A DNA stretch of 60,159 nt, the filler included. It is 4 parts of 4 records of this genome, joined end to end, with 100 filler letters (N's around TTAATTAATTAA, not from the genome) between each part and the next. Parts side by side here need not be neighbours in the genome. Positions count along the whole stretch, not along the records: positions 36,286 to 60,159 come from DRR723986_5893; 3 more parts are not named here. One strand, 5' to 3'. Made by a program: the position numbers and the translations under genes. The first letter of the stretch is position 1. Each line of letters starts with the position of its first letter. Positions 23,822-54,065 of this stretch are shown one piece after another. The notes under the pieces are model-generated. The model saw nothing but the letters and a program-made list of their open reading frames with translations. It searched no databases and was not told the origin of the DNA.

Positions 23822-23846
23822 CGTCACCGCGAGTTGATGTGGAAAT

Positions 23847-25993: not shown

Positions 25994-26093
25994 NNNNNNN
26001 NNNNNNNNNNNNNNNNNNNNNNNNNNNNNNNNNNNNNTTAATTAATTAANNNNNNNNNNNNNNNNNNNNNNNNNNNNNNNNNNNNNNNNNNNN
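25994..26093. other. Artificial contig linker
   Basis: N44-TTAATTAATTAA-N44. Confidence 0.97.
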
Positions 26094-36184: not shown

Positions 36185-36185
36185 G

Positions 36186-36285
36186 NNNNNNNNNNNNNNN
36201 NNNNNNNNNNNNNNNNNNNNNNNNNNNNNTTAATTAATTAANNNNNNNNNNNNNNNNNNNNNNNNNNNNNNNNNNNNNNNNNNNN
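36186..36285. other. Artificial contig linker
   Basis: N44-TTAATTAATTAA-N44. Confidence 0.97.
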
Positions 36286-36286: not shown

Positions 36287-36868
36287 CTCCTCGGGAGGTT
36301 TCCTCAACTCGCCGGCAAAAAGATCATCATGATGCCGGGCCGTATCTCACGCTGGAAAGGCCAGTTGCATTTTCTGGAGGCCATGGCGCGTATCGTACGT
36401 CAACGCCCGGATTGTCACGGCATCATCGTTGGCGGCGCAGAACCGGGCAAGGAACGCTTTCTGCAGGAGCTGGAAAAGGAACGCAGTCGTTTGCAACTGA
36501 CTGATAAAGTCACGTTTCTCGGCCAGCGAAACGATATGACCAACCTCTACCTGCTGGCCGATGTGGTGTGCCACATGTCCACCAAGCCAGAGCCCTTCGG
36601 CCGCACAGTCACCGAGGCCCTGGCGTCCGGTACACCGGTGGTGGCGTACAACCGCGGCGGTGCAGCGGAAACCCTGCAAGCCTGCTTCCGGGAAGGGCTG
36701 GTAACGCCGGACGACACCGGCGCGTTTGCCAGCGCCGTGCTCGGGCTGCTGGACAAACCCAAGCCTGATATATTCCTTCCGGACCGGTTTTTACTGCGGG
36801 CGCAGACAGAGTCCACACTGGAGATATACGAAGCAGCAATTCAGACCAATCGGGCGGCGCTCCAGTGA
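36287..36868 (+). CDS. Glycosyltransferase family 4, 5'-truncated
   Basis: GRISRWKGQ and PEPFGRTVTEALASGTPVV (E-x7-E). The frame is open from the contig start. Confidence 0.9.
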   Translation, partial: LLGRFPQLAGKKIIMMPGRISRWKGQLHFLEAMARIVRQRPDCHGIIVGGAEPGKERFLQELEKERSRLQLTDKVTFLGQRNDMTNLYLLADVVCHMSTKPEPFGRTVTEALASGTPVVAYNRGGAAETLQACFREGLVTPDDTGAFASAVLGLLDKPKPDIFLPDRFLLRAQTESTLEIYEAAIQTNRAALQ

Positions 36869-37866
36869 AGGTTCTGCTGCTGATGCTTTCCGATAGCCCC
36901 GGAATTGGTGGTATGGAAAAACATGCCCGGGAACTCGCAACCGGTTTGGCAGACAGAGGATTGTCTGTAACCCTCGTTGCGGGAAGAGAACACTTACACG
37001 AGCTTCCTTCGTCAGTCAGAGCATCCGTCATAAATACTTCTGGCTCTCGATACTCGCCTGCACTGCTACTTAGAATCTTTCGCCTGATTCATTCCGAAGG
37101 CTTTGACTTGATCCACGCACAGGGCACCAAGGCCGCCTTTGTGTTGCAGCACCTTCGCCCATTGATTAAATCATGCCGGTTGATTGCGACGATTCACGGG
37201 TTCAAGTCCCGGTATCCAAAAGCAAAAGCTTTTGATCGCCTGATTGCAGTCAGCAAGACACTCGCGGCATCGATAAACCAGTCGGGTGTATCGGTAGTCT
37301 ATAACGGGATTAAAGTACCAAGCACCCGTGCACAGAATCCGCTGAAGGCCGACTCCCCGACTTGGCTTGCTGCTGGGCGACTGGTGCCGGTAAAAGGCTT
37401 TGCGCAGTTAATCAAGGCTTTCAGAAACTGTTCGGACAGCCTCTGGATTGCTGGAGATGGCCCAGAGAGGGAATCGCTGCAACAACTGATCGACATCACG
37501 GGGCAGAAGCATCGAATCCACTTGCTGGGTCATCGAAATGACCTGCCGGAACTGATGAATGCATCCCAGGGGGTAATCATAAGTTCCAGCCGCGAAGGTT
37601 TCTCCTATGTCTGCGCCGAGGCACTGCTCCTCGGAAAGCCCGTTATCTCAACAAATGTGCCGATTGCCAACGAGCTACTACGACCCGAACATATAATTGA
37701 ATCACCTAACCTGGAAGGATTGGTGGACCGCTTAGAAACTCCGATCGAGGAACTTCTTGATGCCCAAAGTGAAGCTCGAGCTACCGCAAAACGAGAACTG
37801 ACGCTGGAAGCAATGGTGGAAAACACTGTAACTGTTTACCGTCAGGTTCTGCAGCATGAATCCTGA
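36865..37866 (+). CDS. Glycosyltransferase family 4
   Basis: GGMEKH, GRLVPVKGF and REGFSYVCAEAL motifs. GTGA overlap. Confidence 0.9.
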   Translation: MKVLLLMLSDSPGIGGMEKHARELATGLADRGLSVTLVAGREHLHELPSSVRASVINTSGSRYSPALLLRIFRLIHSEGFDLIHAQGTKAAFVLQHLRPLIKSCRLIATIHGFKSRYPKAKAFDRLIAVSKTLAASINQSGVSVVYNGIKVPSTRAQNPLKADSPTWLAAGRLVPVKGFAQLIKAFRNCSDSLWIAGDGPERESLQQLIDITGQKHRIHLLGHRNDLPELMNASQGVIISSSREGFSYVCAEALLLGKPVISTNVPIANELLRPEHIIESPNLEGLVDRLETPIEELLDAQSEARATAKRELTLEAMVENTVTVYRQVLQHES

Positions 37867-38563
37867 TCAAACAGACAAGCATAGGAGTGCGCTGATAGAT
37901 CTCAAAAATCTTGTTCCCTTTGCACAGGGTGGTAATCGCTATTGTTTTCAACATCCCGAGGATAAGCAGCGCTGCCTGAAGGTAATTCGGCCAGAAAACA
38001 TCAAAGCTCGATACCTCAGACAACCGGGACTTAAGCGCCTGCTTGGCAGAGCCAGGTTGAACGACAATTCGCAGGAACTGAAAGCCCACATGCAACCGGC
38101 AATACGCTGGTTGATCCGGGCCGACAATGAATCAACACTCTGGGCTCACTTGCCCAAATTTTACGGCAGCGTTGAAACCAATTTGGGACATGCGAACGAG
38201 AGCGAACTGATTCGGTGCGCAGACGGAACTGTAGCACCGACCCTGGAGTCTCTTATCCGTAGAGGAGAACTGACCTATCAACTTCAGGGGGCAATAAAAC
38301 GCTTTGAAACGTGGCTGATAAAAACCCGAATTCTGACGCGCAACCTACTGCCGCACAATCTTGTCGTTACCGATCGCTCAGGCCAACCAGAACTGTTTCT
38401 GGTGGACGGCCTGGGGGCTCCAAGCATTCCTCAGGCGCTTGCAATACTCCCCGGGTGGAGCGACCACTATATCAGGAGGAAGCTTGCACGTTTTCACACA
38501 AGAATTATGTGGGAACAGAGCAATGAGGGGTATTCCTGGGAAGATTTCCAACGCTTAAGATAA
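37856..38563 (+). CDS. YrbL-family kinase-like protein
   Basis: AQGGNRYCFQHP...CLKV, PKFYGSVETNLG, NLVV and LVDGLG motifs. Confidence 0.75.
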   Translation: MNPDQTDKHRSALIDLKNLVPFAQGGNRYCFQHPEDKQRCLKVIRPENIKARYLRQPGLKRLLGRARLNDNSQELKAHMQPAIRWLIRADNESTLWAHLPKFYGSVETNLGHANESELIRCADGTVAPTLESLIRRGELTYQLQGAIKRFETWLIKTRILTRNLLPHNLVVTDRSGQPELFLVDGLGAPSIPQALAILPGWSDHYIRRKLARFHTRIMWEQSNEGYSWEDFQRLR

Positions 38564-38642
38564 AACCGCCCTGGGCAGCATGATAAGATATCGATCACTC
38601 TTATCTGCATAACTGGCAACTTTCACAACCCGGAGTGCGCAC

Positions 38643-40061
38643 ATGATTCACCCCGTCATTATGGCCGGCGGCACCGGCTCACGCCTATGGCCTCTGTCCA
38701 GACAGCTGAATCCCAAACAGTTCCTGAAACTAACAGATGATCGCCTGTCCATGCTCCAATTGACTATCGCGCGATTGGAGGGAATAGAATCGGCAGACCC
38801 ACTTATCATTTGTAATGAAGATCACCGTTTCCTGGCAGCAGAGCAGATGCGCCAGTCCGGATACAATGACGCACACATCATTCTGGAGCCGTGCGGTCGC
38901 AACACCGCACCGGCTATCGCGCTTGCGGCGCTGCAATTGGTGAAGAGTGTGGATGAGAACCAGAATCCGCTCATGCTGGTGCTGGCCGCAGACCACATGA
39001 TCAAGGATACGAGCGCCTTCCAGAGCGGTATTAGCAAGGCAATTCCACAAGCTGAACAAGGAAAACTGGTCACTTTCGGGATTGTGCCAAGCCACGCCGA
39101 AACCGGCTATGGATATATCCACCAGGGTTCTCCCCTGGCAGAAGATTGCTTCCAGGTTAGTCGATTTGTCGAGAAACCAGACAAGAAGACCGCCGAAAAA
39201 TACTTGGCCACCGGAGAATACTTGTGGAACAGCGGCATGTTCCTGTTTGGTGCCCGCACCTATCTTGAGGAACTGCAGAAACACCGCCCTGACATTCTAG
39301 CCATCTGCCAAGCCGCCTTGGACGACGCCAGTGAAGACTTGCATTTCACCCGGGTCAACGAAAGCGTCTTTGCCGAGTGCCCTGAAGACTCCGTTGACTA
39401 CGCAGTTATGGAGAAAACAGACAACGCAGTCGTAGTGTCTCTGGACGCTGGCTGGAGCGATATCGGCTCCTGGTCTGCTCTATGGGAGGTGAGTGACAAA
39501 GATGCCAACGGCAACTGCTTCTCGGGTGATGTCATAGTCCACAATACCGAAAGCACCCTGGTTCGAGCCGACAGCCGGCTGGTAGCCACCGTAGGCGTGA
39601 AGGATCTGGTGATCATCGAAACAAAAGATGCCCTGCTGGTCGCCCACAAAGATCAGGTTCAGGACGTCAAGAAAGTGGTGGAAGCGATCAAGAACGATGG
39701 TCGCCACGAGCACATGAACCATCGGGAGGTCTATCGTCCATGGGGGGTTTACGACTCCATCGATAATGGCACCCGTTATCAAGTCAAGCGAATCACGGTA
39801 AAGCCTGGCGCCAAGCTATCGGTTCAGATGCATCACCACAGGGCCGAACACTGGATTGTGGTCAGCGGTACCGCCAAAGTCACCAATGGAGAGAAAACCT
39901 ATCTGGTCACCGAGAACCAGTCCACTTACATCCCGGTTGGCCAGATCCATTCTCTGGAGAACCCGGGCGTCATAGATCTTGAGCTGATTGAGGTTCAATC
40001 CGGTTCCTATCTCGGTGAAGACGACATTGTTCGTTACGAGGACCGCTACGGTCGGTCATGA
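38643..40061 (+). CDS. manC: Mannose-1-phosphate guanylyltransferase / mannose-6-phosphate isomerase
   Basis: [36 protein letters not shown] and cupin [10 protein letters not shown] motifs. Confidence 0.96.
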
Positions 40062-40966
40062 GCAAGCTTAAGTATTTTCTGATTGCCGGCTTATTGCGCA
40101 TCGCCGGCCTGCTACCTCTGAAACTTGCCCAAGCCATTGGCAAGTTCGGCGGTTTGCTGGCTTGGCACCTGAACGGCCGCTCGAGGAAAACCACCGATGT
40201 AAACATCAGGATTTGCCTGCCGGAACTATCAGCGGAGGAACAGCGAAGACTGTCGAAGGAATCCATGGCCCATACCGGCATGACGGCGATGGAGATTCCT
40301 TTAATGTGGGAATGGCCGGTCGACAAGTGCTTCAAACTTATCAAGGAAACCCGAGGGTTGGAGTTGGTTGATCAGGCGCTGGCCTCCGGCAAGGGGCTGA
40401 TCTTGCTCGCCCCCCACCTCGGCAACTGGGAACTGACGGGACTGTTTTTTTCGTCGCGCTATAAAATGGCAGCCCTCTATAGCCCGCCCCATATCAAGGA
40501 ATTCGAGGACTACATGATCCGCGTACGTGGTCGTCTGGGTTCCGAACTGGTGCGCGGCGACCGTAAGGGACTTCTCCGACTGATGGGCATTCTGAAGCAA
40601 GGCGGGGTGGCCGGCATACTTCCGGATCAGTCGCCACGAGGCAAAACCAACGCCTATGCTCCCTTCTTCGGGATGGAAGTGCGCACCATGACGCTAGTGA
40701 ATCGCCTGATTCAGAAAACCGGAGCCAACGTTCTGGTCACCTTTGCCGAACGCCTGCCGGATGGCAAGGGGTTCCACCTGATCGTTGAGGAGGCGGTTCC
40801 GGGCAATGGCGATTCAGATCCCGTAGTGGCCGCAACTGCGCTGAATCAATCGGTCGAGAAAGTCATTCGAATGGCACCCGCTCAGTATCAATGGGAGTAC
40901 AAGCGCCTGCGACATCGCCCGCCCGGCAACCTCAACCCCTATTACCCTCATAAAATCTGTCGTTAG
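40058..40966 (+). CDS. Lipid A lauroyl/myristoyl acyltransferase (LpxL/HtrB family)
   Basis: HLGNWE (H-x4-E), ILPDQ, APFFG and PAQYQW.YKR motifs. Confidence 0.88.
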
Positions 40967-41074
40967 CGCCAGCCCCAACGTCATCAAATTGCCACAGAAT
41001 CGTCACCCGGATGACATGGGGCTTGATTACAACTTATTGCCATACATTTCTCGCTCGGTATTCAGGAAGGTTGT

Positions 41075-42049
41075 ATGGCAAAGCAGAACGCCCGCCCCAA
41101 TCGGTTGCACAAAGCCGGCTTCTATGCCGCCAACGCGTTGTCCGGCGTTCTGCCCTGGGCGTGGTGGTCACAGCAACGTGACCGCCTTATGTCTGAGCTG
41201 GAAAGCCTGACGCCAAGCATCCGAGCGGACATCATGGCCCGGGGTCGTTACTACAACCGTTTACACCAAACCTTCGCACCGGCGCCCGATGCCGAGCCCA
41301 TCCGCTCGTTTTCACCGCGCAATAAAAGCAGTGCCTATTACTTTGATCTTCGTAACGTGATCCGTTACTTTCCACGGGACGCCAGGGTTGCCTATCAGTT
41401 AGGCGATGTTACCCGCATACCCGAGCATCCCCGTTTCGTTAAAAGCCGGCCAATTACCGCTGGAGACACCAACGCGCAATCCGTGCTCCTGAAACTCAAT
41501 ACTGTTCGCCACTACGTCAAGGTAGACGATAAGCTCGCCTTCGAAGATAAACACCCCACGGCTGTCTGGCGGGGAAAATCCAATCACCCGGAACGCATCG
41601 CTTTCGCCCGAAAATGGGCCGACAGCCAACTTTGCGATATCGGGTGTGTGCGCCACAAAGAGCCAACAGTGCAGGCCTATCACAAGCCTTTCATGACCAT
41701 CCCGGAGCAACTCGAGCATCAGTTCATCGTTAGTGTGGAAGGTATCGACGTTGCCACCAACCTGAAATGGATCATGGCATCGAACTCTCTGTGCCTGATG
41801 CGGCGGCCGAGATTTGAAACCTGGTTTATGGAAGGCACCCTGCAGCCAGACATCCATTACGTTCAGCTCAAGGATGATTTTTCGGATCTTGAGCAGAAGG
41901 TCACCTACTACCGTGAGCATCCATCGGAAGCAAAACGCATTATCGCAAACGCCCGTCAACATGCAGCGAGGTTCAGTAATCACCACCATGAGCGACTGAT
42001 TTCGCTTCTGGTTATCGATCGTTATCTGAGGTTGTCCGGGCAGATCTGA
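41075..42049 (+). CDS. Glycosyltransferase family 90 (LpsA-like LPS protein)
   Basis: FVKSRP, VWRG, SVEGIDVATNLKWIM and FETWFMEG motifs. Confidence 0.8.
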   Translation: MAKQNARPNRLHKAGFYAANALSGVLPWAWWSQQRDRLMSELESLTPSIRADIMARGRYYNRLHQTFAPAPDAEPIRSFSPRNKSSAYYFDLRNVIRYFPRDARVAYQLGDVTRIPEHPRFVKSRPITAGDTNAQSVLLKLNTVRHYVKVDDKLAFEDKHPTAVWRGKSNHPERIAFARKWADSQLCDIGCVRHKEPTVQAYHKPFMTIPEQLEHQFIVSVEGIDVATNLKWIMASNSLCLMRRPRFETWFMEGTLQPDIHYVQLKDDFSDLEQKVTYYREHPSEAKRIIANARQHAARFSNHHHERLISLLVIDRYLRLSGQI

Positions 42050-42130
42050 AAAACCCCTGACAGGCATCCAGGCCGGAGCAAGTGTATACTAGGGCCCGTT
42101 TCAATCTGACGGCTCGGGCACTGGTATCTT

Positions 42131-42961
42131 ATGTCTCCAAATTCCATCGGCGTGGTGATTACCACCTACAACTCCCCCCTCTGGCTGGGCAAAGTGCTCA
42201 CAGGCTATGAAAGCCAGAGCTTCAAGTCATTCCGTGTCATTATTGCGGACGATGGATCGACCGATGAGACAAAAGAACTGATCGATACCTTCAAAGCTCG
42301 CGGCATTCTCACTATCGACCACGTATGGCACGAAGACGACGGGTTCCGAAAGTGTCAGATTCTCAACAAAGCCATCCGTGAAACTGAGTGCGACTACCTG
42401 ATCTTTACCGACGGCGACTGCATTCCCGAACCGTATTTCATTCAGACCCATCACGATCTGGCCCGGCCCGGTTACTTTCTTTCCGGCGGCTACATCAAAC
42501 TGACCATGCCGGTATCGGAGGCCATCACCGACAATGACATTCGCTCCGGTGACATCTTCAAGCCCCAGTGGCTCGTTGCCCACGGCCAACCGAAAAACCA
42601 CAAACTCTGGAAGCTTTCCTCTTCACGCGGGTTCCGTCGTTTTATGAACCGGATTACCCCGGCAGCCGCAAGCTGGAATGGCATGAACAGCTCCACCTGG
42701 ACCAAAGATCTGATTGCGGTGAACGGTTTCAACGAAGACATGCAGTATGGTGGTCTGGACCGCGAGCTGGGTGAGCGTCTGTGGAACTATGGCCACAAAT
42801 CCATGCAGATTCGATACAGCACGGTGTGCCTGCATCTGGATCATGCCCGGGGCTATTCAAAACCAGAGATCTGGGCCAAAAACCGGGCCGTCCGGAAAGC
42901 CGTGAAGGATAACAAGACCTTCTGGGCCAAAAATGGCATCAAGAAGAAGCAACCCGCATGA
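42131..42961 (+). CDS. Glycosyltransferase family 2
   Basis: VITTYN, IADDGS, FTDGDC and NGFNEDM.YGGLD motifs. Confidence 0.92.
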   Translation: MSPNSIGVVITTYNSPLWLGKVLTGYESQSFKSFRVIIADDGSTDETKELIDTFKARGILTIDHVWHEDDGFRKCQILNKAIRETECDYLIFTDGDCIPEPYFIQTHHDLARPGYFLSGGYIKLTMPVSEAITDNDIRSGDIFKPQWLVAHGQPKNHKLWKLSSSRGFRRFMNRITPAAASWNGMNSSTWTKDLIAVNGFNEDMQYGGLDRELGERLWNYGHKSMQIRYSTVCLHLDHARGYSKPEIWAKNRAVRKAVKDNKTFWAKNGIKKKQPA

Positions 42962-44112
42962 GAACACTGGTTATTATCCACAGTCTGAAAATGGGCGGTA
43001 TGGAGCGCGTCGCGGTCAATCTGGCCGATGCCTTTGCTGAGGAAGGCCATGAAAGCCATCTGCTTTCTTGCCGGAATCACCCCAATGACCTGGCGCCTGC
43101 CAATCCGGGTGTGAAACTGCATTACTTTGATCAGTTTCAAGCCTTGATGAAGTCGATTATTGGTATTCCGGTATTTCTGTTATCCCGGCTGCTGCTGGGA
43201 GTCATCCTCCCACGCTCCCACTTCATGTGGGTTGGCTGGCTCAGTGGCTGGCTGCTCAAACGCCAGATCCGCGCCCTGGAAAAGCAGCACGGCCGGTTCG
43301 ACCGAATCATTTTCCGTGGACTGGGCACCTTCAAATATTTCTGGTCGTTTCGGGATGAGCGTTGTGTCTACGTTCTTGAAAACGTCATTCATTACGACCG
43401 GCCACTCTGGCAGAAAAAGCTGGAGTGGAAGCTGGTGTTCCACCGCCGCCACCTGGCCTGCGTGTCTTCCGGCGTCATGGACTCGGCCCTTGAGGCCTTC
43501 GAAAAGGGCAGCATTCAGCCTGCCAGCCTTCGGGTAATCACCAACCCTTGTCCGATCAGACAGATCGAGACACTGGCTGGCGAGGCCGATCCAGATACTC
43601 CCACCGCACCCTACATTCTGAATGTGGCGCGCCTCGTGCCCCAGAAGGGCCATGCGCTGCTGTTGGAAGCCTATGCCCGGTCAGGAATCAGCCACAAACT
43701 TGTGATTGTCGGGGAAGGGCCTCTGCGCAGCGAGCTTGAAGCCAAGGCCAGAGAACTTGGCATCCACGACCGAGTGATATTTGCAGGCAAGCGTAAGAAT
43801 CCCTATCCCTGGATGAAAAACGCCGACCTCTTTGTGCTCGCTTCTGAATACGAAGGCCTGGGAATTGTGCTGACCGAAGCCCTGGCCTGTGGCACACCGA
43901 TTATGGCGGTCGAAAGCCGCGGTGGCGTTCGCGACGTGTTCCGGGGAGATCTCGAAGCCTACCTGACGCTGAGAACGGCAGAGGGACTGGCCAGAGGACT
44001 ATCCGCAATTACGCAGGAGCTGCCGGTTACCGTAAAGCCTGAATGGCTGGCACCGTTTCGCAGTGAGGTGGTCGTGGCTGCCTTTCTTGACGCCCCCCAT
44101 TCCCGACGATGA
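42958..44112 (+). CDS. Glycosyltransferase family 4
   Basis: GGMERV, ARLVPQKG and YEGLGIVLTEALACG motifs. ATGA overlap. Confidence 0.92.
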   Translation: MRTLVIIHSLKMGGMERVAVNLADAFAEEGHESHLLSCRNHPNDLAPANPGVKLHYFDQFQALMKSIIGIPVFLLSRLLLGVILPRSHFMWVGWLSGWLLKRQIRALEKQHGRFDRIIFRGLGTFKYFWSFRDERCVYVLENVIHYDRPLWQKKLEWKLVFHRRHLACVSSGVMDSALEAFEKGSIQPASLRVITNPCPIRQIETLAGEADPDTPTAPYILNVARLVPQKGHALLLEAYARSGISHKLVIVGEGPLRSELEAKARELGIHDRVIFAGKRKNPYPWMKNADLFVLASEYEGLGIVLTEALACGTPIMAVESRGGVRDVFRGDLEAYLTLRTAEGLARGLSAITQELPVTVKPEWLAPFRSEVVVAAFLDAPHSRR

Positions 44113-44121
44113 AGAATACCC

Positions 44122-45054
44122 ATGGCTGAACACACCACCCCGCTCAATATTATGGTAGCCGGCATTTACTGGTCCGGTTCAGGAGCTGTAGTCGATTATC
44201 TCAAGGGCCACCCGGATTGCTTCGTTCCGCGTGGAGAATTCACGGACTTCAAGCGCAGCGGCCGTATTGGCTCGATGCTGGAGGCAGCAACTGCTCATCG
44301 TGCAAAATGGTTGGCCAGAGGCATGTGGCTGGAAACCCGTCTTGGAAAACTCCCAGCCGCCCAGTTGAAAGCAGCAAAAGGCAAAGCGCAGGCATCCATG
44401 CCTTTGAAAGAACAAGTCGGGCATCACCGGTTAAAACTTGAGTATCTTGGCAAATACCGACGTCACCTTGGCAACAACGGCAGCCACACCGATGCCGCGA
44501 TCTGGAACCAGTGGTTGCAAGCCGTGGGGCTTGCCCAAGCCGCTGGAAAGCCGGCGATTGTCTGGAATCAGCCGATCTGGGTAGGTAAACACGAGCATAT
44601 CTGGCCAGCCGTCTTCCAGCCTTACAAACTGATTGTTGTTCATCGCGACCCGGTGGACCAGTTCGCGGAAGTGGTTCGGCAAGGAAAAATCGGAAAACGA
44701 AAGTCCGATCCCGCGTTCAACGACGATGAAAAAGACGATATTGCCTACGTACTCACGGGTATCCGGGCCAAAATAAAAAGCCTGAGAGCCTTGGCAGACC
44801 AACTTGGCCGCGAGCAGATACTGCTGATCAGTTTTGAACGTTTCGTAAAAGACCACGGCTCGGAAGCACAAAGGCTCTGCGACTTTCTCAGCCTGCCAGA
44901 ATCACAAACGCCCTCAGCACCCTTTGACCCAAACATATCAATCCTGAACATCGGCATTGGTCAGACCGAGGCCATCCAGGCCATGCTCGCCCCATATCAG
45001 AACCTGGTGGACGAGCTTTATCGACTACGCCATCAACTGGACAGCTTGCAGTAA
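44122..45054 (+). CDS. P-loop sulfotransferase-fold protein
   Basis: N-terminal VAGIYWSGSGAV (5'-PSB-like loop), IVVHRDPVD (3'-PB-like) and ISFERFV..LCDFL motifs. Confidence 0.65.
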   Translation: MAEHTTPLNIMVAGIYWSGSGAVVDYLKGHPDCFVPRGEFTDFKRSGRIGSMLEAATAHRAKWLARGMWLETRLGKLPAAQLKAAKGKAQASMPLKEQVGHHRLKLEYLGKYRRHLGNNGSHTDAAIWNQWLQAVGLAQAAGKPAIVWNQPIWVGKHEHIWPAVFQPYKLIVVHRDPVDQFAEVVRQGKIGKRKSDPAFNDDEKDDIAYVLTGIRAKIKSLRALADQLGREQILLISFERFVKDHGSEAQRLCDFLSLPESQTPSAPFDPNISILNIGIGQTEAIQAMLAPYQNLVDELYRLRHQLDSLQ

Positions 45055-45815
45055 GAATCAAGGCGGCCATCCGCCGCCATTTCAGAATAGGCTTCCAGCT
45101 CCTCTGCTGTATCGACCTCCAGCCAGCCATTGGAAACAAGACAGGCTTTGACCGGCCAGCCTGTATCAATCAGGTGCTGAATAAAGCTGGTCATATACAT
45201 GTTGTCGAAGTCTTTACCGTCGTATAACCGGGACCGGTCCAGTGCCAGAAAAGCATCCTTGAAAGCCTGGACGTGGTCTGCGCGAACCTTGATCAGCCCC
45301 ATATACTGGGCCTCGACCTGATCGTAACTTTCCGGCTTTTTACCCAACTCGATGACAAGTCCCTTCTCGTTCATACGGAAAGTCTCAGCGTCATCAAGTG
45401 GCTCATCCATCCTCAACTGCCAGAGTCTGCGCCATTCACGATCAGCGGCAAGACACACAGGCGCCTCGCAATCCAGTAGCGATTGGAAAACGCCTGGCTC
45501 GTAGATAATGTCACCGTAACTGATGACCAGATCCTCACCGGGTACCATCTGGTCTTGAGCGCAGAACAACGTGCGAACCATGTTGGTTGAGGCATACTCC
45601 GGGTTAATCACGAGACCAGCCCCGAGCGTATCCAGATCGCCGGATCGGTAACCTCCAATGACCGTGATGCCATCCGTAATGCCACATTGCCTCATCGCAG
45701 CCATCTGACGGTGCAGCAGCGGAACACCAGCAAGAGCAACCATGCATTTAGGGCGGTCTTCCGTATAAGGCCGCAGCCGGGTTCCCTGGCCTGCAGCCAG
45801 TATCAGTGTTCGCAT
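45033..45815 (-). CDS. Cytidylyltransferase (LicC/Cj1416-like; putative CTP:phosphoglutamine cytidylyltransferase)
   Basis: ILAAGQGTRLRPYTEDRPKCMV, STNMVRTL, SYGDI, YMTSFIQ and WLEVDT motifs. Confidence 0.85.
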   Translation of the reverse strand: MRTLILAAGQGTRLRPYTEDRPKCMVALAGVPLLHRQMAAMRQCGITDGITVIGGYRSGDLDTLGAGLVINPEYASTNMVRTLFCAQDQMVPGEDLVISYGDIIYEPGVFQSLLDCEAPVCLAADREWRRLWQLRMDEPLDDAETFRMNEKGLVIELGKKPESYDQVEAQYMGLIKVRADHVQAFKDAFLALDRSRLYDGKDFDNMYMTSFIQHLIDTGWPVKACLVSNGWLEVDTAEELEAYSEMAADGRLDSYCKLSS

Positions 45816-46450
45816 GCTTCACCTCGGAGAATATGATTAAACAAACGGCTGTCAGCGTCGCTGAATGTCGACTCGCGCTCTGGGTGCCACATGATACCCG
45901 CCCAGGCCAGTCGATTATGCAAGAAGGCTTCGACATGGCCTTCCGCACTAAAACACTGCGGAATCAGCGCCCTTGCGAGTCCTTCTGCGGCAACCCCCCA
46001 GTTGTGGTAGCTGTTTACCTCCACAAACTGCCTGAAACAACCGATTGCCGCTGCCCCCACGACTATCGGGTGCCGCACAGCCGTATGATTGGCGACGGGG
46101 ACGAGCGTGCCACCGAGCCATGTATTGATCACCTGTAACCCCCGGCAAACGCCGATTACCGGAATCTCAGTTTCGTAAGCCCAAGCGAGCAAAGCTGCTT
46201 CGGCAGAGTCACGTTCCGGCGAGGGATTTTTAGCATTCGGAAGATTGCTTAGATCGTTTCCCCCAGTTAGTACTAGCGCCTCCAATGCCATTGAATCCGC
46301 CCATTTGGCAGTATCCAAAAGCCGGTTTGGAATCGGAATGGGGGTATATCCGAGGGCTTCCAAAAAACAGAACCACTGTTGGTCCAGGCAGTCTCGCCGC
46401 TCTCCGTATGCGGTGACGAGCTCAACCCGCTGGGTAATGCCCACACGCAT
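45803..46450 (-). CDS. Class I glutamine amidotransferase / peptidase C26 (Cj1417-like gamma-glutamyl-CDP-amidate hydrolase)
   Basis: ERRDCLD..W, LTGGND, GVCRG (catalytic Cys), VNSYH and WHPE (His-Glu). Confidence 0.85.
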   Translation of the reverse strand: MRVGITQRVELVTAYGERRDCLDQQWFCFLEALGYTPIPIPNRLLDTAKWADSMALEALVLTGGNDLSNLPNAKNPSPERDSAEAALLAWAYETEIPVIGVCRGLQVINTWLGGTLVPVANHTAVRHPIVVGAAAIGCFRQFVEVNSYHNWGVAAEGLARALIPQCFSAEGHVEAFLHNRLAWAGIMWHPERESTFSDADSRLFNHILRGEACEH

Positions 46451-46451
46451 A

Positions 46452-49400
46452 CTAACGGATCACCTCAATACGCTTATTCACAGGGTCCAACTCCAAGGTA
46501 GCCGCTTTCGCGAGCGCAGCATATTTGCCCTCACCCACGCCGATAGCCGCTGCCAGCCCATACTCTGCGGCACGAATGGCCATGTGTGAATTGGCGCCAC
46601 CGTACATAGTGATCAAGCCCACAATACCTTGACCAAACAACCAGTCGTAGCCGGGGTCTGCTTGAGGGATGAGAGCGATCTTACCCTCAAGTACTTGCGC
46701 ATCGCCCTCTGGCGAAGTCGACAGTTCCTGACAATCGGCTGCCACTCGCTGTTTACCGACGAAATTGGCTTGCGCCTCTGAATACACAAACAAATAGAAA
46801 TCCGATTCAGACAGCAACAGTGGCGGCAGCTCGACCATAGCAGCCGCGCGGCCGAAACAAGCCCCCTCGCTCGCCTGTGCCGCAAGCCAGGAGGCCGCCT
46901 GACCTGACGGCACCGATCCACTTCGGAGTATAGCGAACGCCTCGAGAGGAATGTCCGCCACCTGCGTACGATCCAGCTTATAGTCCGCCCCCATACAAGC
47001 CAGCGCTTCCAAGGCCAGAGATAGATAGCGAGTAAATACAAACTTCGCCTTCTCTCGGCCCTCAATAGCGCCTCGCATAAACTGCTCAAGCAGCTCTATG
47101 TCCGAAGGCAGGCCGGCCTTTGCCATCGCTCCAGCAAAGGCATCCCTTTCCGCATTCCAACTGATCATGTCCGGCTCTGCGCACGAATCCGACGCATGGG
47201 CTTCTGCACGTAATACCGCTGGCGCAAGATATTGCTCCGGATTTGTGTCATAACGCGCCGAGGTGATGTCATAAGTACCGGGTCGAAGATGGCCGTATAG
47301 GGCAATTAAGTCTGCAAATGCCATGTCCTGACGCGCTACTCGAATCAAATCGTCCGTAAAGCGATGAGATACAGTGCGGATGGAGTTCATGAATTCATCC
47401 ACGGCCGTTGGTGACAAAACACCTGTATGAACGGCCGATTTCAGCAACGTGACGGCAACAAAGCCACTCCGCGCCAAGTGAGCAAAAACCAGAGTGCCAT
47501 AGCGTTTGCACTCCTCAAGAAGCATAAAAGCTTTTTCCAGGCCGGCGACAGGTTCCTGTTCGAAGCTGGCAAAACGCGCTTCGACATTCCGTACTGCCCG
47601 CAGATCTCTTTCCGTTCTTGCAATAGCGCCAGTAGTGATGCTTCGCAACCCGGACTCAAGTTGCTCCACCTCGTTGTGGTCGAAGCCTCCTTCTGTAATT
47701 AACCGATCGCGCCAACGCTCGAAATCAAGTGCCAGGCACGTAGGCACAACCTCAAATTCGACCTTATCATGTAAGTGGGGGTGCTGTTTAAGCCACTTCA
47801 GATAGAAGTTAACCAGCCGCCGGGCCAAGTCATCACTCACACTGGCCGGAACAAACGAATTGAAGCTGGCACGGATATCGATGTACGGGTGCCCCGCAAA
47901 CATTTGCAACAGAGGCTGTGGACGGACATCCCGATAACCGTACTCCGCGCGCTGAGTTGCCCATACATCATCGAGAATAAGGTAGCGATAAAGACTCGCG
48001 GCAAGCCGTCCCGGCCGGGTTCCGATAATTTCAGCCGGATTCCAGTCGGGCATAACACCAAACAAAGCTTGATCTCCGACTACAAACGGGCCCGTCAGTT
48101 GCAACTCCCGGAAACGCTCAACCGCGTCTTGCAGCAGATACTCCCCCTGTGCATTTTGATCCGACTCATGCTGAACTGCAATCGGGCGTACTTGAAGCAC
48201 ATGCACAACTCCGCCAACGGTCAGGGCGAATTCAATATCAAGCGAATCGAAATCGAGTAGATCTTCTATTTCTCGGAGCGCAGGCAGCAAGCCCCTTAGG
48301 TTAACCGGCACAGAGACTAGCTGATCCGGCGCATCCCGCCGCACAATCAGTGTTTTATGCTCGCGACTTGCCCCGCTGGTGATTGACTCTGTGCTACGAG
48401 TGGTGTCGTCGTAATTTATGACGTAATAAGGCGCACCGGAAGATAGGGTTTTCGTGAAGGCAACACCACTGGCAACAACATCCTCCAGCATCGGCTGAAC
48501 CAGCACCTGGTTATCCGGATCGCCATCCGGATATGAGCCGATTACGGCTTCAATAGCGGAGCGCAAATCCCCACAGTTGTGGCGATCAACGCGGAGAATA
48601 CTGGTATAGGCGCCGGCGTTTGACACACCAAAGCCATCCTCTGACAACGCACTGCTACGGACCACAACTTTATCCTGCCCCGCCAGAGCGCCACCAATTT
48701 GTGCCAGAATACCGTCTTGATCCAGCTGCCAGTCTGACACCGTGAAACTAACCTGATCTTCTATTCGACTACGAGCAACGATACCTTGCAGCCTATGAAG
48801 GGTTTGGGCTTTGGTTCCAAGCACAAAACGACTCAGATCATTGGCTTCATTCAACTCAGCCCATTCGCCAGCGACATCAACGGCTTCGACCTGAAATCCG
48901 CGAACTCTGAGATACTCCAGCAACTGTGTCAGGTTGCCATTTCGGATTGAATCGGGAATGCCTGGGGTATCCCTCAGAAATCCGGCCACTCTGCCCGTCA
49001 GGCGAACCAGACCAACAAACTCTCCATCGGCCAACTCGGGGTCTATATCTCTACCGAGCCGGGTGACAACTCCATCAACTACATTCACCTTTTCGCAGCG
49101 GGCAATATCCTTATCCGACCTTCCCTCAAACCTGGATCTCCAGCAGGAGTCCACAAGCACCGCAATGTCTGCCGAGCTCGTGGCAAGAGCTTCAGCCGCC
49201 GATTCACGGAACAAAATATCGGCGTACGACACGAAGTGTGTCTCGGAGGCGTTTAACGGAGCCTCAAGCAGAGAGGCAGCAGCTCCGGTCGTTTCCCAAC
49301 GGGGATTCACTGTGTAATGGAGCTTCGGATAGCGCCGGGACACAGCGTCAAGCTGATACCCCCCCACGAAGTGAACCTCGGGCTTGATGGATCGCATGGC

Positions 49401-49532
49401 ATGTAACAACCAGTCCAGCACTCTGCGCCGACCAGTCGCACCGCGCAAACCACTGTGCTGTTCACCTTTGAATGGTTTTCCGGCACCCAGAATTATTAGG
49501 CGGGGTTGATGATGATCCAAACTGAGACTCAC
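46452..49532 (-). CDS. PEP-utilising-fold L-glutamine kinase (Cj1418-like) with fused N-terminal nucleotidyltransferase domain; start uncertain (GTG 49532)
   Basis: GTKAQTL, VVRSSALSED, DIEFA, LQVRP, VMPDWNPAEIIG, YGHLRPGTYDI and phosphohistidine motif GGANSHMAIR. N-terminal IILGAG...SYADI...WAELN domain. Confidence 0.88.
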   Translation of the reverse strand: MSLSLDHHQPRLIILGAGKPFKGEQHSGLRGATGRRRVLDWLLHAMRSIKPEVHFVGGYQLDAVSRRYPKLHYTVNPRWETTGAAASLLEAPLNASETHFVSYADILFRESAAEALATSSADIAVLVDSCWRSRFEGRSDKDIARCEKVNVVDGVVTRLGRDIDPELADGEFVGLVRLTGRVAGFLRDTPGIPDSIRNGNLTQLLEYLRVRGFQVEAVDVAGEWAELNEANDLSRFVLGTKAQTLHRLQGIVARSRIEDQVSFTVSDWQLDQDGILAQIGGALAGQDKVVVRSSALSEDGFGVSNAGAYTSILRVDRHNCGDLRSAIEAVIGSYPDGDPDNQVLVQPMLEDVVASGVAFTKTLSSGAPYYVINYDDTTRSTESITSGASREHKTLIVRRDAPDQLVSVPVNLRGLLPALREIEDLLDFDSLDIEFALTVGGVVHVLQVRPIAVQHESDQNAQGEYLLQDAVERFRELQLTGPFVVGDQALFGVMPDWNPAEIIGTRPGRLAASLYRYLILDDVWATQRAEYGYRDVRPQPLLQMFAGHPYIDIRASFNSFVPASVSDDLARRLVNFYLKWLKQHPHLHDKVEFEVVPTCLALDFERWRDRLITEGGFDHNEVEQLESGLRSITTGAIARTERDLRAVRNVEARFASFEQEPVAGLEKAFMLLEECKRYGTLVFAHLARSGFVAVTLLKSAVHTGVLSPTAVDEFMNSIRTVSHRFTDDLIRVARQDMAFADLIALYGHLRPGTYDITSARYDTNPEQYLAPAVLRAEAHASDSCAEPDMISWNAERDAFAGAMAKAGLPSDIELLEQFMRGAIEGREKAKFVFTRYLSLALEALACMGADYKLDRTQVADIPLEAFAILRSGSVPSGQAASWLAAQASEGACFGRAAAMVELPPLLLSESDFYLFVYSEAQANFVGKQRVAADCQELSTSPEGDAQVLEGKIALIPQADPGYDWLFGQGIVGLITMYGGANSHMAIRAAEYGLAAAIGVGEGKYAALAKAATLELDPVNKRIEVIR

Positions 49533-49727
49533 TATTCCGAGGAGAAGAAGTTCTCTGCTGCTATCCTGCGCCAAGCAAATATCAACGTCATGGCAGTACA
49601 CAGACCATCAAACAGCGGATGGCATACAATTTTAAATGATATCATTGGTGATAAAGCAATAATCTGAATCAGAGCCACAGCTATTCGTTCATCGGCAACA
49701 GGCTGGGGTGGCAGAAAGGACAATACC

Positions 49728-51155
49728 ATGAGGCAACGCTCACACCATATCACCGCAAACCTCGAGCAAACCGTCATCGAGAATGGCTTTTGCGTCGGCT
49801 GTGGTGCCTGTGCAGCCATTCCAGAATCGCCATTCTCCATATCTCTGAACGGAAAGGGGCAATATCAAGCGTCAGCAGATAAAAAAATAGATAACTCCCG
49901 CCCTGTAATTCAAGATTGCGTCGGCAAAGTATGCCCTTTTTCAGATAGCGCTGCTAACGAAGACAGCATTGCCCATGACCTTTTTGTAAACACTTGCGAT
50001 AGGCATACCGAGGGACTTGGTTATTTCCAAGCGATCTATGGTGGGCACGTTATTCAAGACGGCTTCCGGGAACGGGGAAGTTCCGGCGGGTTCGGATCCT
50101 GGATTTTAAACGAATTGCTGGAAACAAAGGCTGTTGATCACATTATTCATGTACGCCCATCCGAGGCGCTTGGGGCAGGTCACCCACTGTTCACTTATCA
50201 AGTTTCCAGCTCTGCCCGGGAAGTAGCACTGGGAGGTAAATCCCGATATTACCCGATTGAGCTATCGCAGGTTCTGAAACACGTTCGCGAAACGCCTGGC
50301 CGCTACGCCATCATAGGACTTCCTTGTTTCATCAAGAGTGTTCGTCTTCTTCAACGCCAAGATCCGCTTATAAAAGAAAGGATCAAATTCTGTATCGGTC
50401 TGGTTTGCGGTCATCTCAAAAGTACTCAATATGCCGAGAGCCTTGCCTGGCAGGCGGGAATTGAGCCTCAGAGCCTGAACCGCATCGACTTTCGCGTCAA
50501 AGACAACACAGAAAGAGCAGATCGGTATTGCACATTGGCTGCAAGCAACAAGGAAGAGCGGATAATCCCTACCAAAGAGCTTAAAGGAACAGACTGGGGG
50601 GCGGGCGCGTTCAAATATAAGGCCTGTGATTTCTGCGATGATGTATTTGCCGAAACTGCCGACATGGTGCTGGGCGATGCGTGGCTACCGCAATTCGTTG
50701 GTGACCCCCTGGGCACCAATGTCCTCGTTGTCAGAGATCAGCGCCTGGACGCCATCCTGCGATCTGCAGCGGAAGCGCGCCGGATCCAAATTAATTCCCT
50801 GCCAGAGACAGAAGCATTGACGTCTCAGGATGCCGGGTTAAGACATAGACGTGAGGGTCTGGGGTACCGACTACATCTTGAAAAAATGACTGGGAACTGG
50901 GCCCCAAAAAAGCGCGTCCCTGCCTCACCTCGAGGAATTCCCCCAAGAGAAAGACGACGGCAGGAAATGCGAATCAAAATGCGGGAACTTTCCCATAGCT
51001 CGTTTCAAAAAGCTAAACACGCCAACGATATTTCGCTTTATATTGAGCCCTTCACCAAAGCTTACAGAGAATACAAAAAAATCAAACCAAGCCGGTTCAA
51101 CAAACTGGCATTAAAGACAAAGCGGTTCATTCAGAATTTAGCGGGACGCTCATGA
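49728..51155 (+). CDS. Coenzyme F420 hydrogenase beta subunit (FrhB/FdhB)-like Fe-S flavoprotein
   Basis: CVGCGAC...CP ferredoxin motif, GSSGG, SRYYP, GLPC, GLVCG and CDFCDD motifs. Confidence 0.88.
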   Translation: MRQRSHHITANLEQTVIENGFCVGCGACAAIPESPFSISLNGKGQYQASADKKIDNSRPVIQDCVGKVCPFSDSAANEDSIAHDLFVNTCDRHTEGLGYFQAIYGGHVIQDGFRERGSSGGFGSWILNELLETKAVDHIIHVRPSEALGAGHPLFTYQVSSSAREVALGGKSRYYPIELSQVLKHVRETPGRYAIIGLPCFIKSVRLLQRQDPLIKERIKFCIGLVCGHLKSTQYAESLAWQAGIEPQSLNRIDFRVKDNTERADRYCTLAASNKEERIIPTKELKGTDWGAGAFKYKACDFCDDVFAETADMVLGDAWLPQFVGDPLGTNVLVVRDQRLDAILRSAAEARRIQINSLPETEALTSQDAGLRHRREGLGYRLHLEKMTGNWAPKKRVPASPRGIPPRERRRQEMRIKMRELSHSSFQKAKHANDISLYIEPFTKAYREYKKIKPSRFNKLALKTKRFIQNLAGRS

Positions 51156-52303
51156 AAGTTGCGATTCTTACACAGCCTTTGGGCCACAACTACGGTGGAA
51201 TATTGCAGGCTTACGCAATGCAGACAGTTCTTCGTGAACTTGGTTTCGAGCCAGAGACGATCGATAGGCGAAAACCCACAGGCTGGCGGAAGGTAGCACG
51301 CGACTACGTCAAGTACTCGATAAAAAAACTGCGCAGACGGATAAAAACAATCCCTACAGAAGCCAGAAAAAGCTACATTTACAGCAATCTTGAAGAGTTT
51401 CGGTCTATTCACCTGAAGATGTCACCAGTACTGACTTCTTCAGGTGATCTCTTGCAATACTGCGAAAATCAAAGTTTCGATTGTTATCTGGTGGGCAGCG
51501 ACCAAGTGTGGCGACCAAGATATTCACCTTGCCTCTCAAATTTCTTTTTGGATTTTGCTGCAAACACCACTTTCAGCGACAAAACCAAAATAAGCTACGC
51601 AGCATCGTTTGGCGTTGATCAGTGGGAGTTTTCAGACACTCAAACGATGAATGCAAAGTCTCTGCTTCAAGGATTCAGCGGCGTATCTGTTCGGGAAAAA
51701 TCAGCCGTGTCACTTTGTCGAGAACATCTTGGCGTGAACGCCGACTGGGTATTGGATCCGACTCTTTTGCTAAGTCGGTCCCACTACCAGGCCCTTATCG
51801 GCAATGGCACCGAATCCCCAAAACAAGCGGGAATTCTTCGCTACGTTCTGGACGAAAGTGAGACCAACAACACAGTCATTTCAAAAGCTGAAGCATTGCT
51901 CGGCATCGAGAGTTTTTCCGTAAAGCCCCATAAAACGCTTCAGGACTCGACACTCAACGATATCCACGCCTGTCAATACCCTCGGGTTGAGTCATGGATC
52001 CAGGGATTTCAGGATTCCAAATACGTAATCACAGATTCGTTCCACGGAACCGTTTTTGCCATTCTATTCAACAAACCATTTCTTGCGCTTGGCAATCAGG
52101 GACGAGGCTTGTCACGGTTTCAATCACTTCTTGGCCTACTGGGACTAGAACAGCGACTGATTACCTCTAAGACAGACTTGAATAAGGAGTTACTTGAAAC
52201 GCCGATCGACTGGCAGATCGTAAACGAACGCTTGATTCCGGCAATCAAGGAATCTAGGGCATTTCTGGTTAAACACCTGAAGGCAAGACGCGCAGATGAA
52301 TAG
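51152..52303 (+). CDS. Polysaccharide pyruvyl transferase family protein
   Basis: NYGGILQAYA, VGSDQVW, SYAASFG, SVRE, DPTLLL and TDSFHG motifs. ATGA coupling. Confidence 0.92.
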   Translation: MKVAILTQPLGHNYGGILQAYAMQTVLRELGFEPETIDRRKPTGWRKVARDYVKYSIKKLRRRIKTIPTEARKSYIYSNLEEFRSIHLKMSPVLTSSGDLLQYCENQSFDCYLVGSDQVWRPRYSPCLSNFFLDFAANTTFSDKTKISYAASFGVDQWEFSDTQTMNAKSLLQGFSGVSVREKSAVSLCREHLGVNADWVLDPTLLLSRSHYQALIGNGTESPKQAGILRYVLDESETNNTVISKAEALLGIESFSVKPHKTLQDSTLNDIHACQYPRVESWIQGFQDSKYVITDSFHGTVFAILFNKPFLALGNQGRGLSRFQSLLGLLGLEQRLITSKTDLNKELLETPIDWQIVNERLIPAIKESRAFLVKHLKARRADE

Positions 52304-52337
52304 CTATGCTATGCGCCGGCTTTCCAACTAATCCCTT

Positions 52338-53216: not shown

Positions 53217-53222
53217 AATCGA

Positions 53223-53897: not shown

Positions 53898-54065
53898 AAG
53901 ACGTTGAGTCCGGAATCTATGAAGCGATGTATTTTTTCTACTGGCAAAGCTATTTGCCCAAACCACCCGCGCGCCGCTGCATTCAGTTCTTGGCCACTAT
54001 CGGAGCAACAACGAAAAACGTATAATCGAAGCATCGCTTTAAAGTTATATTTCAGAGAGTTACAA

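Follow-up and report, generated by a model that had tools for sequence, protein, structure and literature searches.

A sulfotransferase-fold protein encoded beside a phosphoramidate-donor operon in a Marinobacter lipopolysaccharide locus is a candidate phosphoramidate transferase

The gene at positions 44122-45054 of a 60,159-nucleotide stretch of DNA, the whole of which is referred to here as the window, encodes a 310-amino-acid protein, P0001, that public sources label 'sulfotransferase'. It stands at the end of a run of lipopolysaccharide (LPS) genes, tail to tail with an operon resembling the one with which Campylobacter jejuni makes its phosphoramidate donor. The best explanation, in which our confidence goes about halfway and no further, is that P0001 is a sulfotransferase-fold enzyme that moves phosphoramidate from cytidine diphosphate (CDP)-amidate, probably not 3'-phosphorylated, onto a sugar of the LPS core, a proposal drawn from sequence comparison and structural modelling. 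The features on which the argument depends are the following.

44122-45054, plus strand: sulfotransferase-fold protein P0001, 310 amino acids (aa), proposed phosphoramidate transferase (PF13469, AlphaFold2 model, Foldseek)
45033-45815, minus strand: LicC-like nucleotidyltransferase, 260 aa, in the position of Cj1416, the C. jejuni CTP:phosphoglutamine cytidylyltransferase (NTP_transf_3, E 1.2e-12)
45803-46450, minus strand: class-I glutamine-amidotransferase-type hydrolase, 215 aa, Cj1417-like (NF045546, Peptidase_C26)
46452-48842, minus strand: glutamine-kinase-like part, residues 254-1049 of protein P0002, Cj1418-like (NF004508/PRK05849)
48843-49601, minus strand: extra nucleotidyltransferase-like domain fused to the kinase N-terminus ('LIILGAGKP...', ~250 aa)
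42958-44112, plus strand: GT4 glycosyltransferase directly upstream of P0001, on the conserved-flank side of the cassette boundary
36329-58727, no single strand: LPS core biosynthesis cluster (Pfam and NCBIfam matches, G+C)

The P0001 open reading frame (ORF) starts with ATG, 9 bases after the stop codon of the GT4 gene, with which it probably shares one transcript, and it closes the plus-strand run of glycosyltransferase and LPS genes at 36329-45054. Its 3' end overlaps that of the minus-strand nucleotidyltransferase ORF by 22 bp (45033-45054). A sequence-only reading of the window had described this arrangement as well as the motifs GIYWSGSG and VHRDP, and both descriptions hold, the motifs lying at residues 14-21 and 173-177. 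The nearest database protein, MARHY0660 of Marinobacter nauticus ATCC 49840, is 98% identical to P0001, indicating that the window is from M. nauticus or a near relative. Since 53 homologues (E <= 0.001) keep the motifs at identities down to 29%, the ORF is a real gene; the organism-named matches, including every named one of at least 47% identity, are all from Marinobacter. The surrounding cluster contains GT4, YrbL-like, ManC, LpxL-type acyltransferase, GT90 and GT2 genes, a FrhB-like/pyruvyl-transferase pair, a second GT2, an O-antigen-ligase-like gene, GT25, two Kdo/WaaP-type kinases and a heptosyltransferase, and the G+C of the 36-58 kb region is ~0.49-0.55, against ~0.60-0.65 across most of the remaining window.

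The minus-strand donor operon is tight, with overlapping start and stop codons. Residues 254-1048 of P0002 (46452-49601, 1049 aa) match NF004508/PRK05849, which we take to be the family that contains Cj1418, at 854.7 bits (cutoff 501); the protein carries the Pfam domains PPDK_N and PEP-utilizers, and three homologues of 56-59% identity bear the JGI name 'glutamine kinase'. The domain fused to its N-terminus is a paralogue of the stand-alone nucleotidyltransferase (22% identity over the full length, E 1e-11) and is 30-33% identical to the N-termini of kinases from Vibrio and Roseovarius. As the homologues align from residue 29-34, the true start of P0002 probably lies ~20-30 codons inside the listed GTG ORF. 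The hydrolase matches NF045546, 'gamma-glutamyl-CDP-amidate hydrolase' (E 1.7e-34, 119.7 bits, under the equivalog cutoff of 250), with the runner-up NCBIfam family 25 orders of magnitude behind at 1.1e-9, and Pfam Peptidase_C26 (E 8e-23). For the nucleotidyltransferase, the best match in the PDB is the CTP:phosphocholine cytidylyltransferase LicC (1jyk, E 1.3e-11), and no Cj1416-specific NCBIfam model matched. It is 34-50% identical to its counterparts in five plasmid glutamine-kinase clusters, two of which (Smac51 and Azospirillum 4B) also have a gene resembling adenosine 5'-phosphosulfate (APS) kinase and an S-adenosylmethionine (SAM) methyltransferase, a gene content like that of C. jejuni, and share the gene order seen here. 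The order of the three genes is presumably that of Cj1418-Cj1417-Cj1416 in C. jejuni, and an end product of phosphoramidate on a surface glycan would be common to both systems. The steps of the C. jejuni donor pathway are as given in part of a review (PMC6429109).

Compared with C. jejuni, the window lacks a Cj1415-type kinase and has a glutamine kinase extended by an N-terminal domain; its candidate transferase is of another fold, and the proposed target is the LPS core rather than the capsule. A Cj1415- or APS-kinase-like gene was found neither in the window nor within 10 kb in the 16 Marinobacter loci described below. The window likewise holds no homologue of ATP sulfurylase or APS kinase (best tblastn E 0.21; for the APS-kinase domain, best E 3.1 in the window and 0.58 in the 16 loci), and PF01583 and PF01747 match none of its 63 ORFs and ORF segments (16 + 37 + 10). 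This agrees with the earlier remark that no genes for the synthesis of 3'-phosphoadenosine 5'-phosphosulfate (PAPS) are visible; these negatives are local, covering the window and 16 loci of ~21 kb each. In C. jejuni we understand Cj1421 and Cj1422 to be the proposed transferases, and Cj1419 and Cj1420 to be methyltransferases; no Methyltransf-family Pfam domain matched the 16 ORFs scanned at 36329-53966. Nine candidate transferases from other glutamine-kinase clusters, including a TagF-like protein, a CDP-alcohol transferase, the 413-aa paralogues flanking the Smac51 cluster, a 650-aa protein and tetratricopeptide-repeat (TPR) proteins, have no homologue (E <= 0.01) in the window or in any of the loci L001-L023 collected below, which leaves P0001 as the sole transferase candidate in the Marinobacter cassette.

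P0001 is confidently predicted to have a sulfotransferase fold. Pfam Sulfotransfer_3 (PF13469) matches residues 10-259 (E 2.6e-11, 44.7 bits, cutoff 27), all of its Pfam matches are to sulfotransferase families, and a search of the ESM Atlas returned solely 'sulfotransferase' clusters; no NCBIfam model matches P0001, nor do the Pfam domains Glyphos_transf and CDP-OH_P_transf. An AlphaFold2 model built with 17 homologues (pLDDT 94.2, pTM 0.91) was compared with the PDB by Foldseek, where the top matches were all sulfotransferases at probability 1.0, the best neighbours being TPST1/2, bacterial and polyketide-synthase sulfotransferase domains, and heparan sulfate 3-O-sulfotransferases (3-OSTs). 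The TM-scores of just 0.43-0.50 mark P0001 as a divergent member of the fold.

The divergence extends to the donor site. Residue equivalences were taken from a profile alignment to heparan sulfate 3-O-sulfotransferase-3 (3-OST-3, PDB 1t8t), in which 'GIYWSGSGAV' of P0001 stands opposite 'GVKKGGTRAL' and 'VVHRDPVDQFAE' opposite 'VVVRDPVTRAIS'. The 5'-phosphosulfate-binding (PSB) loop of P0001 is without Lys or Arg, Y16-W17 lying opposite the KK of 'GVKKGGT', and the absence of the usual basic residue, already claimed from the sequence, is thereby confirmed. In the 3'-phosphate-binding motif R-x7-S, the Arg is kept as R175, and the Ser of 'RDPVTRAIS' is replaced by Glu183 in 'R175-D-P-V-D-Q-F-A-E183'; the Arg equivalent to R175 is assumed here to bind the 3'-phosphate in sulfotransferases. 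E39 lies opposite the Glu of 'GAEPH', in a weak 5.3-bit segment of the alignment, and this Glu we take to be the catalytic base of 3-OST-3. P0001 thus resembles the PAPS-dependent enzymes (3-OST-3, 1t8t; TPST2, 3ap1 and 9wwe) in its fold, N-terminal strand-loop-helix, 'hhhhRDPxD' Arg motif and Glu opposite that of 'GAEPH', and would be expected to be cytoplasmic and to have a sugar acceptor. It differs from them in Y16-W17, in Glu183, in its low TM-scores, in the lack of PAPS-synthesis genes nearby and in its genetic coupling to cytidylyl-activated phosphorus donors.

These results bear on two other explanations. One is that P0001 is a PAPS-dependent sulfotransferase, acting on a core sugar or on an installed phosphorus substituent with PAPS from housekeeping metabolism, while another protein moves the phosphoramidate. 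Pfam, the fold and the public name place P0001 with sulfotransferases, and R175 and D179 of the 3'-phosphate-binding motif are retained, but the missing loop Lys/Arg and the replacement of Ser by Glu argue against PAPS as its donor, and the cassette would be left without any transferase; we consider this explanation unlikely. The other is that P0001 is a kinase-like or tailoring enzyme acting on a nucleotide intermediate in place of Cj1415, with the real transferase encoded outside the cassette. The fold is kin to P-loop kinases (deoxycytidine kinase and adenylate kinase appear at Foldseek ranks 49-50), no Cj1415 homologue is present, and P0001 adjoins the Cj1416-like gene at roughly the position of Cj1415. 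However, 'GIYWSGSGAV' has no Walker-A Lys, E39 lies opposite the acceptor-activating Glu of a carbohydrate sulfotransferase, no flanking LPS gene tracks the donor type, and relatives of P0001 occur in phosphonate operons, for which no 3'-phosphorylation step is mentioned in the available part of PMC6697681; a tailoring role is very unlikely.

The donor-site changes are shared by many relatives of P0001. In an exhaustive search with a profile, 1325 representatives scored E <= 0.001 or better, 318 of them E <= 1e-10, and an alignment of 117 sequences was made from the query and those representatives of 250-400 aa among the best 150. No basic residue at position 16 or 17 together with Asp or Glu at 183 was found in 83 of the 117 and with Gln or Asn at 183 in 20 more, so that 103 of 117 share both changes; Lys or Arg at 16 or 17 occurs in just 8. 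Position 183 is Asp or Glu in 91 sequences, Gln or Asn in 20 and Ser or Thr in 4, position 39 is Glu in 101 and Asp in 9, and R175 is invariant. The marks of the subfamily are an aromatic residue for the Lys/Arg of the nucleotide loop and Asp or Glu for the 3'-phosphate Ser, and the joint absence of a basic loop residue and of the Ser in the 103 representatives counts further against PAPS as the donor. Such conservation also bears on the notion that P0001 is the relic of a sulfotransferase, decayed or without catalytic function, and that synteny has kept it in the LPS locus of Marinobacter. The canonical catalytic-loop residues are indeed absent and the organism-named close relatives come from one genus, but an alignment of 17 sequences down to 28% identity has 39 invariant and 40 nearly invariant columns, 318 representatives are found at E <= 1e-10, the predicted fold is very confident, and the sole locus without the donor module has a truncated copy, so that a relic is hardly credible. 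A profile search for fused forms of 591-2000 aa gave none at E <= 1e-5, a search rated as weak evidence, and the long forms among the representatives have an N-terminus that is TPR or of no known family, not an activating enzyme. Cluster members of 10 distant representatives are metagenomic proteins that gave no taxonomic or functional lead, and tblastn of P0001, the domain of locus L020 (see below) and the representative P0057 against 72,556 plasmids gave no match.

One scan of species-representative genomes yielded 23 loci, 16 from Marinobacter and 7 distant. In 14 of the 16 Marinobacter loci, the P0001 homologue faces the operon of nucleotidyltransferase, hydrolase and kinase genes tail to tail, and the two remaining loci, L010 and L014, show what happens when that operon is lost or exchanged. 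In L010 (Marinobacter excellens HL-55 metagenome-assembled genome (MAG), 10001-11100), a deletion removed the whole phosphoramidate operon and the FrhB-like gene and left the first ~250 codons of the sulfotransferase-like gene joined to the 3' part of the gene for the pyruvyl transferase; the resulting ORF follows the family to about residue 250 and then continues as unrelated sequence, with loss of the conserved C-terminal third. The deletion could be an assembly artefact. In L014, the flanking genes are close to those of L002, L004, L005 and L016 (LpxL 90-92%, GT2 91-94% and GT4 86-87% identical), but the sulfotransferase-like protein is just 52-54% identical to those of the same four loci; within this group of four, the L004 protein shares 81-94% identity with those of L002, L005 and L016. 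Directly downstream (7 bp, same strand) in the phosphonate operon of L014 (5510-7969) lies a fusion of a PF01467 cytidylyltransferase with a phosphoenolpyruvate (PEP) mutase (CT-Ppm; TIGR02320, 407.9 bits, cutoff 319.55), followed at the contig end by the start of a phosphonopyruvate decarboxylase gene. With near-identical flanks and a divergent sulfotransferase-like protein, the breakpoint of the exchange falls between GT4 and the sulfotransferase-like gene, and the latter therefore belongs to the exchanged cassette, together with an activated-phosphorus pathway.

The P0001 gene and the donor-synthesis genes thus behave as one cassette. The flanking LPS genes are alike whether the module is of the phosphoramidate type, of the phosphonate type or absent, so no flanking LPS gene tracks the donor. 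A PAPS-dependent enzyme for a core sugar should stay with the flank, but the gene was swapped in L014 and truncated in L010 along with the donor pathway. The sequence-only reading had proposed that a PAPS-binding fold was repurposed to transfer phosphoramidate. The repurposing itself gains from the pairing in 14 of 16 loci, the joint loss, the joint swap, the lack of PAPS-type residues and the absence of another candidate, while the specific idea that 3'-phospho-CDP-amidate serves as a PAPS mimic finds no support here, there being no Cj1415-like gene and Glu183 standing for the 3'-phosphate Ser.

Among the distant loci, two of seven sit with phosphonate-type genes. In L020 (actinobacterial MAG, 1272-6821), the atypical domain ('YSGSGAVLD', 'VVHRDPRDQYAEV') is C-terminal in a protein of 576 aa, the last one encoded in an operon whose other products are CT-Ppm, phosphonopyruvate decarboxylase (Ppd; 444.4 bits, cutoff 312.5) and a phosphonate-type iron alcohol dehydrogenase, which scores under its cutoff. 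The dehydrogenase suggests hydroxyethylphosphonate as the product of this operon. The CT-Ppm is 65% identical to that of L014, though one is from an actinobacterium and the other from Marinobacter. In the archaeal MAG locus L017, a gap of 152 bp separates the gene from that of a divergent cytidylyltransferase of 161 aa, whose identity to the cytidylyltransferase domain of L014 is 36%. PEP mutase is present in just ~5% of bacterial genomes, according to part of a published survey (PMC8942020), and this rarity makes two operon-level associations among eight non-phosphoramidate loci unlikely to be due to chance, with the reservation that the two Ppm genes are related. The relatives in L014 and L020 resemble the phosphonyl tailoring (Pnt) pathway (Ppm fused to a cytidylyltransferase, PntC, CMP-AEP), as described in part of PMC6697681, in their place inside CT-Ppm/Ppd operons and in the cytidylyl activation that precedes transfer to a glycan. 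The likely transferases named there by Rice et al. (2019) are LicD-like phosphotransferases or glycosyltransferases, and the word 'sulfotransferase' occurs 0 times in the available text of PMC6697681 and 0 times in that of PMC8942020.

A further distant locus, L018, lies in an LPS-like region that includes a KdsB-type cytidylyltransferase. At a distance of 8 kb it has an ATP-sulfurylase/APS-kinase fusion, which makes it the one distant locus of seven near PAPS-synthesis genes, and at 1 kb a canonical sulfotransferase. The nearby PAPS-synthesis gene favours a PAPS-dependent role for this relative; on the other side, it is the canonical neighbour that retains the Ser ('KDPRAQCAS'). As a separate observation, the 276-aa subfamily member in L022 (Candidatus Nealsonbacteria MAG, 2931-6041) is followed, after ~770 bases, by the gene for the large subunit of a phage terminase, and some members may for this reason be borne by phages or prophages.

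Extending the proposal from P0001 to its relatives, the 318-cluster bacterial and archaeal subfamily may comprise transferases of phosphorus headgroups from CDP or cytidine monophosphate (CMP) conjugates onto glycans, rather than sulfotransferases, a generalization that is held only tentatively. The headgroups would be phosphoramidate, 2-aminoethyl- or 2-hydroxyethyl-phosphonate, and possibly others.

The glutamine-kinase module also occurs with other partners. Nine of 14 kinase-carrying plasmids were inspected for neighbours. In Vibrio alfacsensis (L025, 6076-14654), the operon is followed by a protein of the TagF-like CDP-glycerol glycerophosphotransferase family (22.5 bits, cutoff 22.1); in Roseovarius, the protein before the operon weakly matches the same family (21.2 bits, below the cutoff); and in Allorhizobium S4, a CDP-alcohol phosphatidyltransferase follows it. 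Smac51 and three Azospirillum plasmids have APS-kinase-like genes, methyltransferases and other large proteins of no known family, a Cupriavidus plasmid has the kinase alone, and in a Microvirga plasmid the region is unannotated. The gene next to the module thus varies by lineage, and in the Vibrio and Allorhizobium clusters, which have no APS-kinase-like gene, it comes from a family whose donors are CDP-linked and whose reactions release CMP; this variation fits non-orthologous replacement of an acceptor-specific transferase. TagF-like and CDP-alcohol families hold the slot by the kinase operon in Vibrio, Roseovarius (the weak match) and Allorhizobium that P0001 holds in Marinobacter, and P0001 would share with them and with LicD the transfer of a distal group to a hydroxyl with CMP leaving. 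Unlike them, it has an unrelated fold and belongs to none of their families. The presence of cysDN by the Vibrio kinase operon and of Sulfotransfer_1/2 genes near Azospirillum clusters shows that sulfation and phosphoramidate genes mix, which is a point in favour of P0001 being an ordinary sulfotransferase.

Other details of these clusters were noted in passing. In L025, the TagF-like protein is accompanied by a 539-aa protein of no known family after the operon of the nucleotidyltransferase (NT)-fused glutamine kinase, and cysD-cysN and an SLC13 permease lie upstream of, and divergent from, that operon. The fused kinase is ~1017-1050 aa in Pseudomonas, Halomonas, Legionella, Marinomonas, Vibrio and Roseovarius. 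Among the inspected clusters, the fused kinase occurs without an APS-kinase-like gene, and the unfused kinases (Azospirillum, Smac51) occur with one. The Azospirillum plasmids (L026, A. lipoferum 4B AZO_p6, 4641-17245; L031; L030) carry a C. jejuni-like phosphoramidate cluster with an 846-aa protein that has a C-terminal APS_kinase domain and with a SAM methyltransferase. Just downstream, strain 4B has two Sulfotransfer_1 genes that keep the canonical Ser ('RDPRD..(I/H)S'), one with a degenerate N-terminal loop and the other without the loop; in A. ramasamyi their place is taken by a Sulfotransfer_2 gene, and strain TSA2s lacks such genes. These canonical sulfotransferases were considered as independent support and set aside as inconsistent (two of three plasmids, different families).

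The sulfotransferase fold, the changed motifs, the nature of the adjacent genes and the cassette-like co-inheritance with cytidylyl-activated phosphorus pathways are what the data show, and from them we infer a donor, an acceptor, a chemistry and a role for E39. In the proposed scheme, the glutamine kinase would produce N-phospho-L-glutamine, which the LicC-like cytidylyltransferase would convert to CDP-L-glutamine, and the amidotransferase-type hydrolase would release cytidine diphosphoramidate. P0001, as a cytoplasmic group transferase no longer using PAPS, would bind this product in the site where sulfotransferases hold PAPS. E39, as the probable base, would deprotonate a hydroxyl of the nascent LPS core sugar at the cytoplasmic face; the hydroxyl would attack the terminal phosphorus, CMP would leave, and the phosphoramide group would end on the core. 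The lack of a Cj1415-type 3'-kinase and the replacement of Ser by Glu183 indicate that the donor is probably CDP-amidate with a free 3'-OH.

Several observations weigh against this proposal. The TM-scores of P0001 are no higher than 0.43-0.50, and the residue equivalences depend on a single profile alignment that is weak, its domains scoring 5.3 and 14.6 bits. As the 14 paired loci are syntenic and from related species, they count for little more than one observation, and the independent events number about four, namely the loss in L010, the swap in L014, and the loci L020 and L017. Phosphoramidate genes are absent from all seven distant loci, so that the neighbourhood analysis suggested at the outset came out favourably for close homologues, which co-occur with such genes, and unfavourably for distant ones. 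L019, L021, L022 and L023 show no activating gene in the stretches collected, those of L019 and L023 being cut short by contig ends, and the neighbours of L018 imply that some family members may be true sulfotransferases. The NT-fused kinase is widespread (6851 of 8000 scored candidates at E <= 1e-20), with named carriers including Pseudomonas, Halomonas, Legionella, Marinomonas and Spiribacter, and none of the 14 kinase-carrying plasmids has a tblastn match to P0001; the module being common without it, P0001 is at most one of several alternative partners. The invariance of R175 makes a 3'-phosphorylated donor, formed by a kinase encoded elsewhere, possible. Finally, a literature search aimed at a Marinobacter LPS structure found none.

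Some further features of the window deserve mention. The minus-strand gene at 53223-53966 encodes a protein of ~215 aa without a Pfam or NCBIfam match that is present in 15 of the 16 Marinobacter loci, the contig of L006 ending earlier. It has an invariant block '...NFRE.GG.L.H.GP...G.HR.A.A...PAQ.G..H', and its AlphaFold2 model (pLDDT 84) has weak fold matches (E >= 0.15) to ParB-CDP, SbnI and sulfiredoxin, which point to a possible nucleotide-binding enzyme of the ParB/Srx type; its translation probably begins ~22 codons after the listed GTG. It was examined as a rival transferase and rejected: Foldseek gave nothing at E <= 0.001, and its presence in L010, which has no module, means that the gene does not track the donor. 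At 49728-52303 (plus strand), the pair of FrhB/FdhB-like (475 aa) and polysaccharide pyruvyl transferase (383 aa) genes adjoins the kinase gene; among the 16 Marinobacter loci it occurs only in L003, with a remnant in L010, and is thus another optional LPS decoration module. The first gene of the LPS run (36329-36868, plus strand, 179 aa) resembles GT4 glycosyltransferases in their C-terminal half only (profile positions 20-160 of 172), a short form that aligns in the other Marinobacter loci too, and Pfam gives no match for the preceding ORF (35678-36241). At ~10568-26000, the G+C is 0.49-0.54, against ~0.65 just upstream and 0.60-0.63 just downstream. This stretch starts at the point where the reading frame of a DctM TRAP-transporter gene ends, after 188 aa that cover profile positions 3-150 of 413, and contains genes for S-adenosylhomocysteine hydrolase, SAM synthetase, a nucleotidyltransferase and an RND efflux system with a TetR regulator, as well as two large ORFs without a significant Pfam match, one of them with a sub-threshold DUF5686; it looks like an inserted island.

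To our knowledge, a phosphoramidate-to-glycan transferase has been demonstrated in no organism. The fold and the modification pathway are known, and what is new is the proposed reaction and the partner; the literature searches yielded no paper in which phosphoramidate or phosphonate transfer is connected with a protein of the sulfotransferase fold, although a remark in the primary Raushel papers on Cj1415 and Cj1418 is possible. As late as August 2025, part of a recent article (PMC12409886) left the transfer step in C. jejuni to future work, and the transfer of CMP-activated phosphonates onto cell-surface glycans is likewise presented as open in part of PMC6697681. A soluble 310-aa candidate from a non-pathogenic marine bacterium would make both questions directly testable, the more so as phosphoramidate-type and phosphonate-type versions occur naturally on the same genetic background. 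Unmethylated phosphoramide is a known substituent of the LPS core of Shewanella MR-4 (in part of PMC3210612) and of Xanthomonas campestris 8004 (in part of PMC8042644), which gives the proposal a chemical precedent. If true, the proposal would explain how the phosphoramide of Shewanella and Xanthomonas LPS could be installed without the 3'-kinase and transferases of C. jejuni and would give the sulfotransferase fold a class of reaction new to it. If the reading of the subfamily is also true, it would supply the missing LPS phosphoramide transferase and a missing phosphonoglycan transferase, and hundreds of gene families now called 'sulfotransferase' would be re-annotated.

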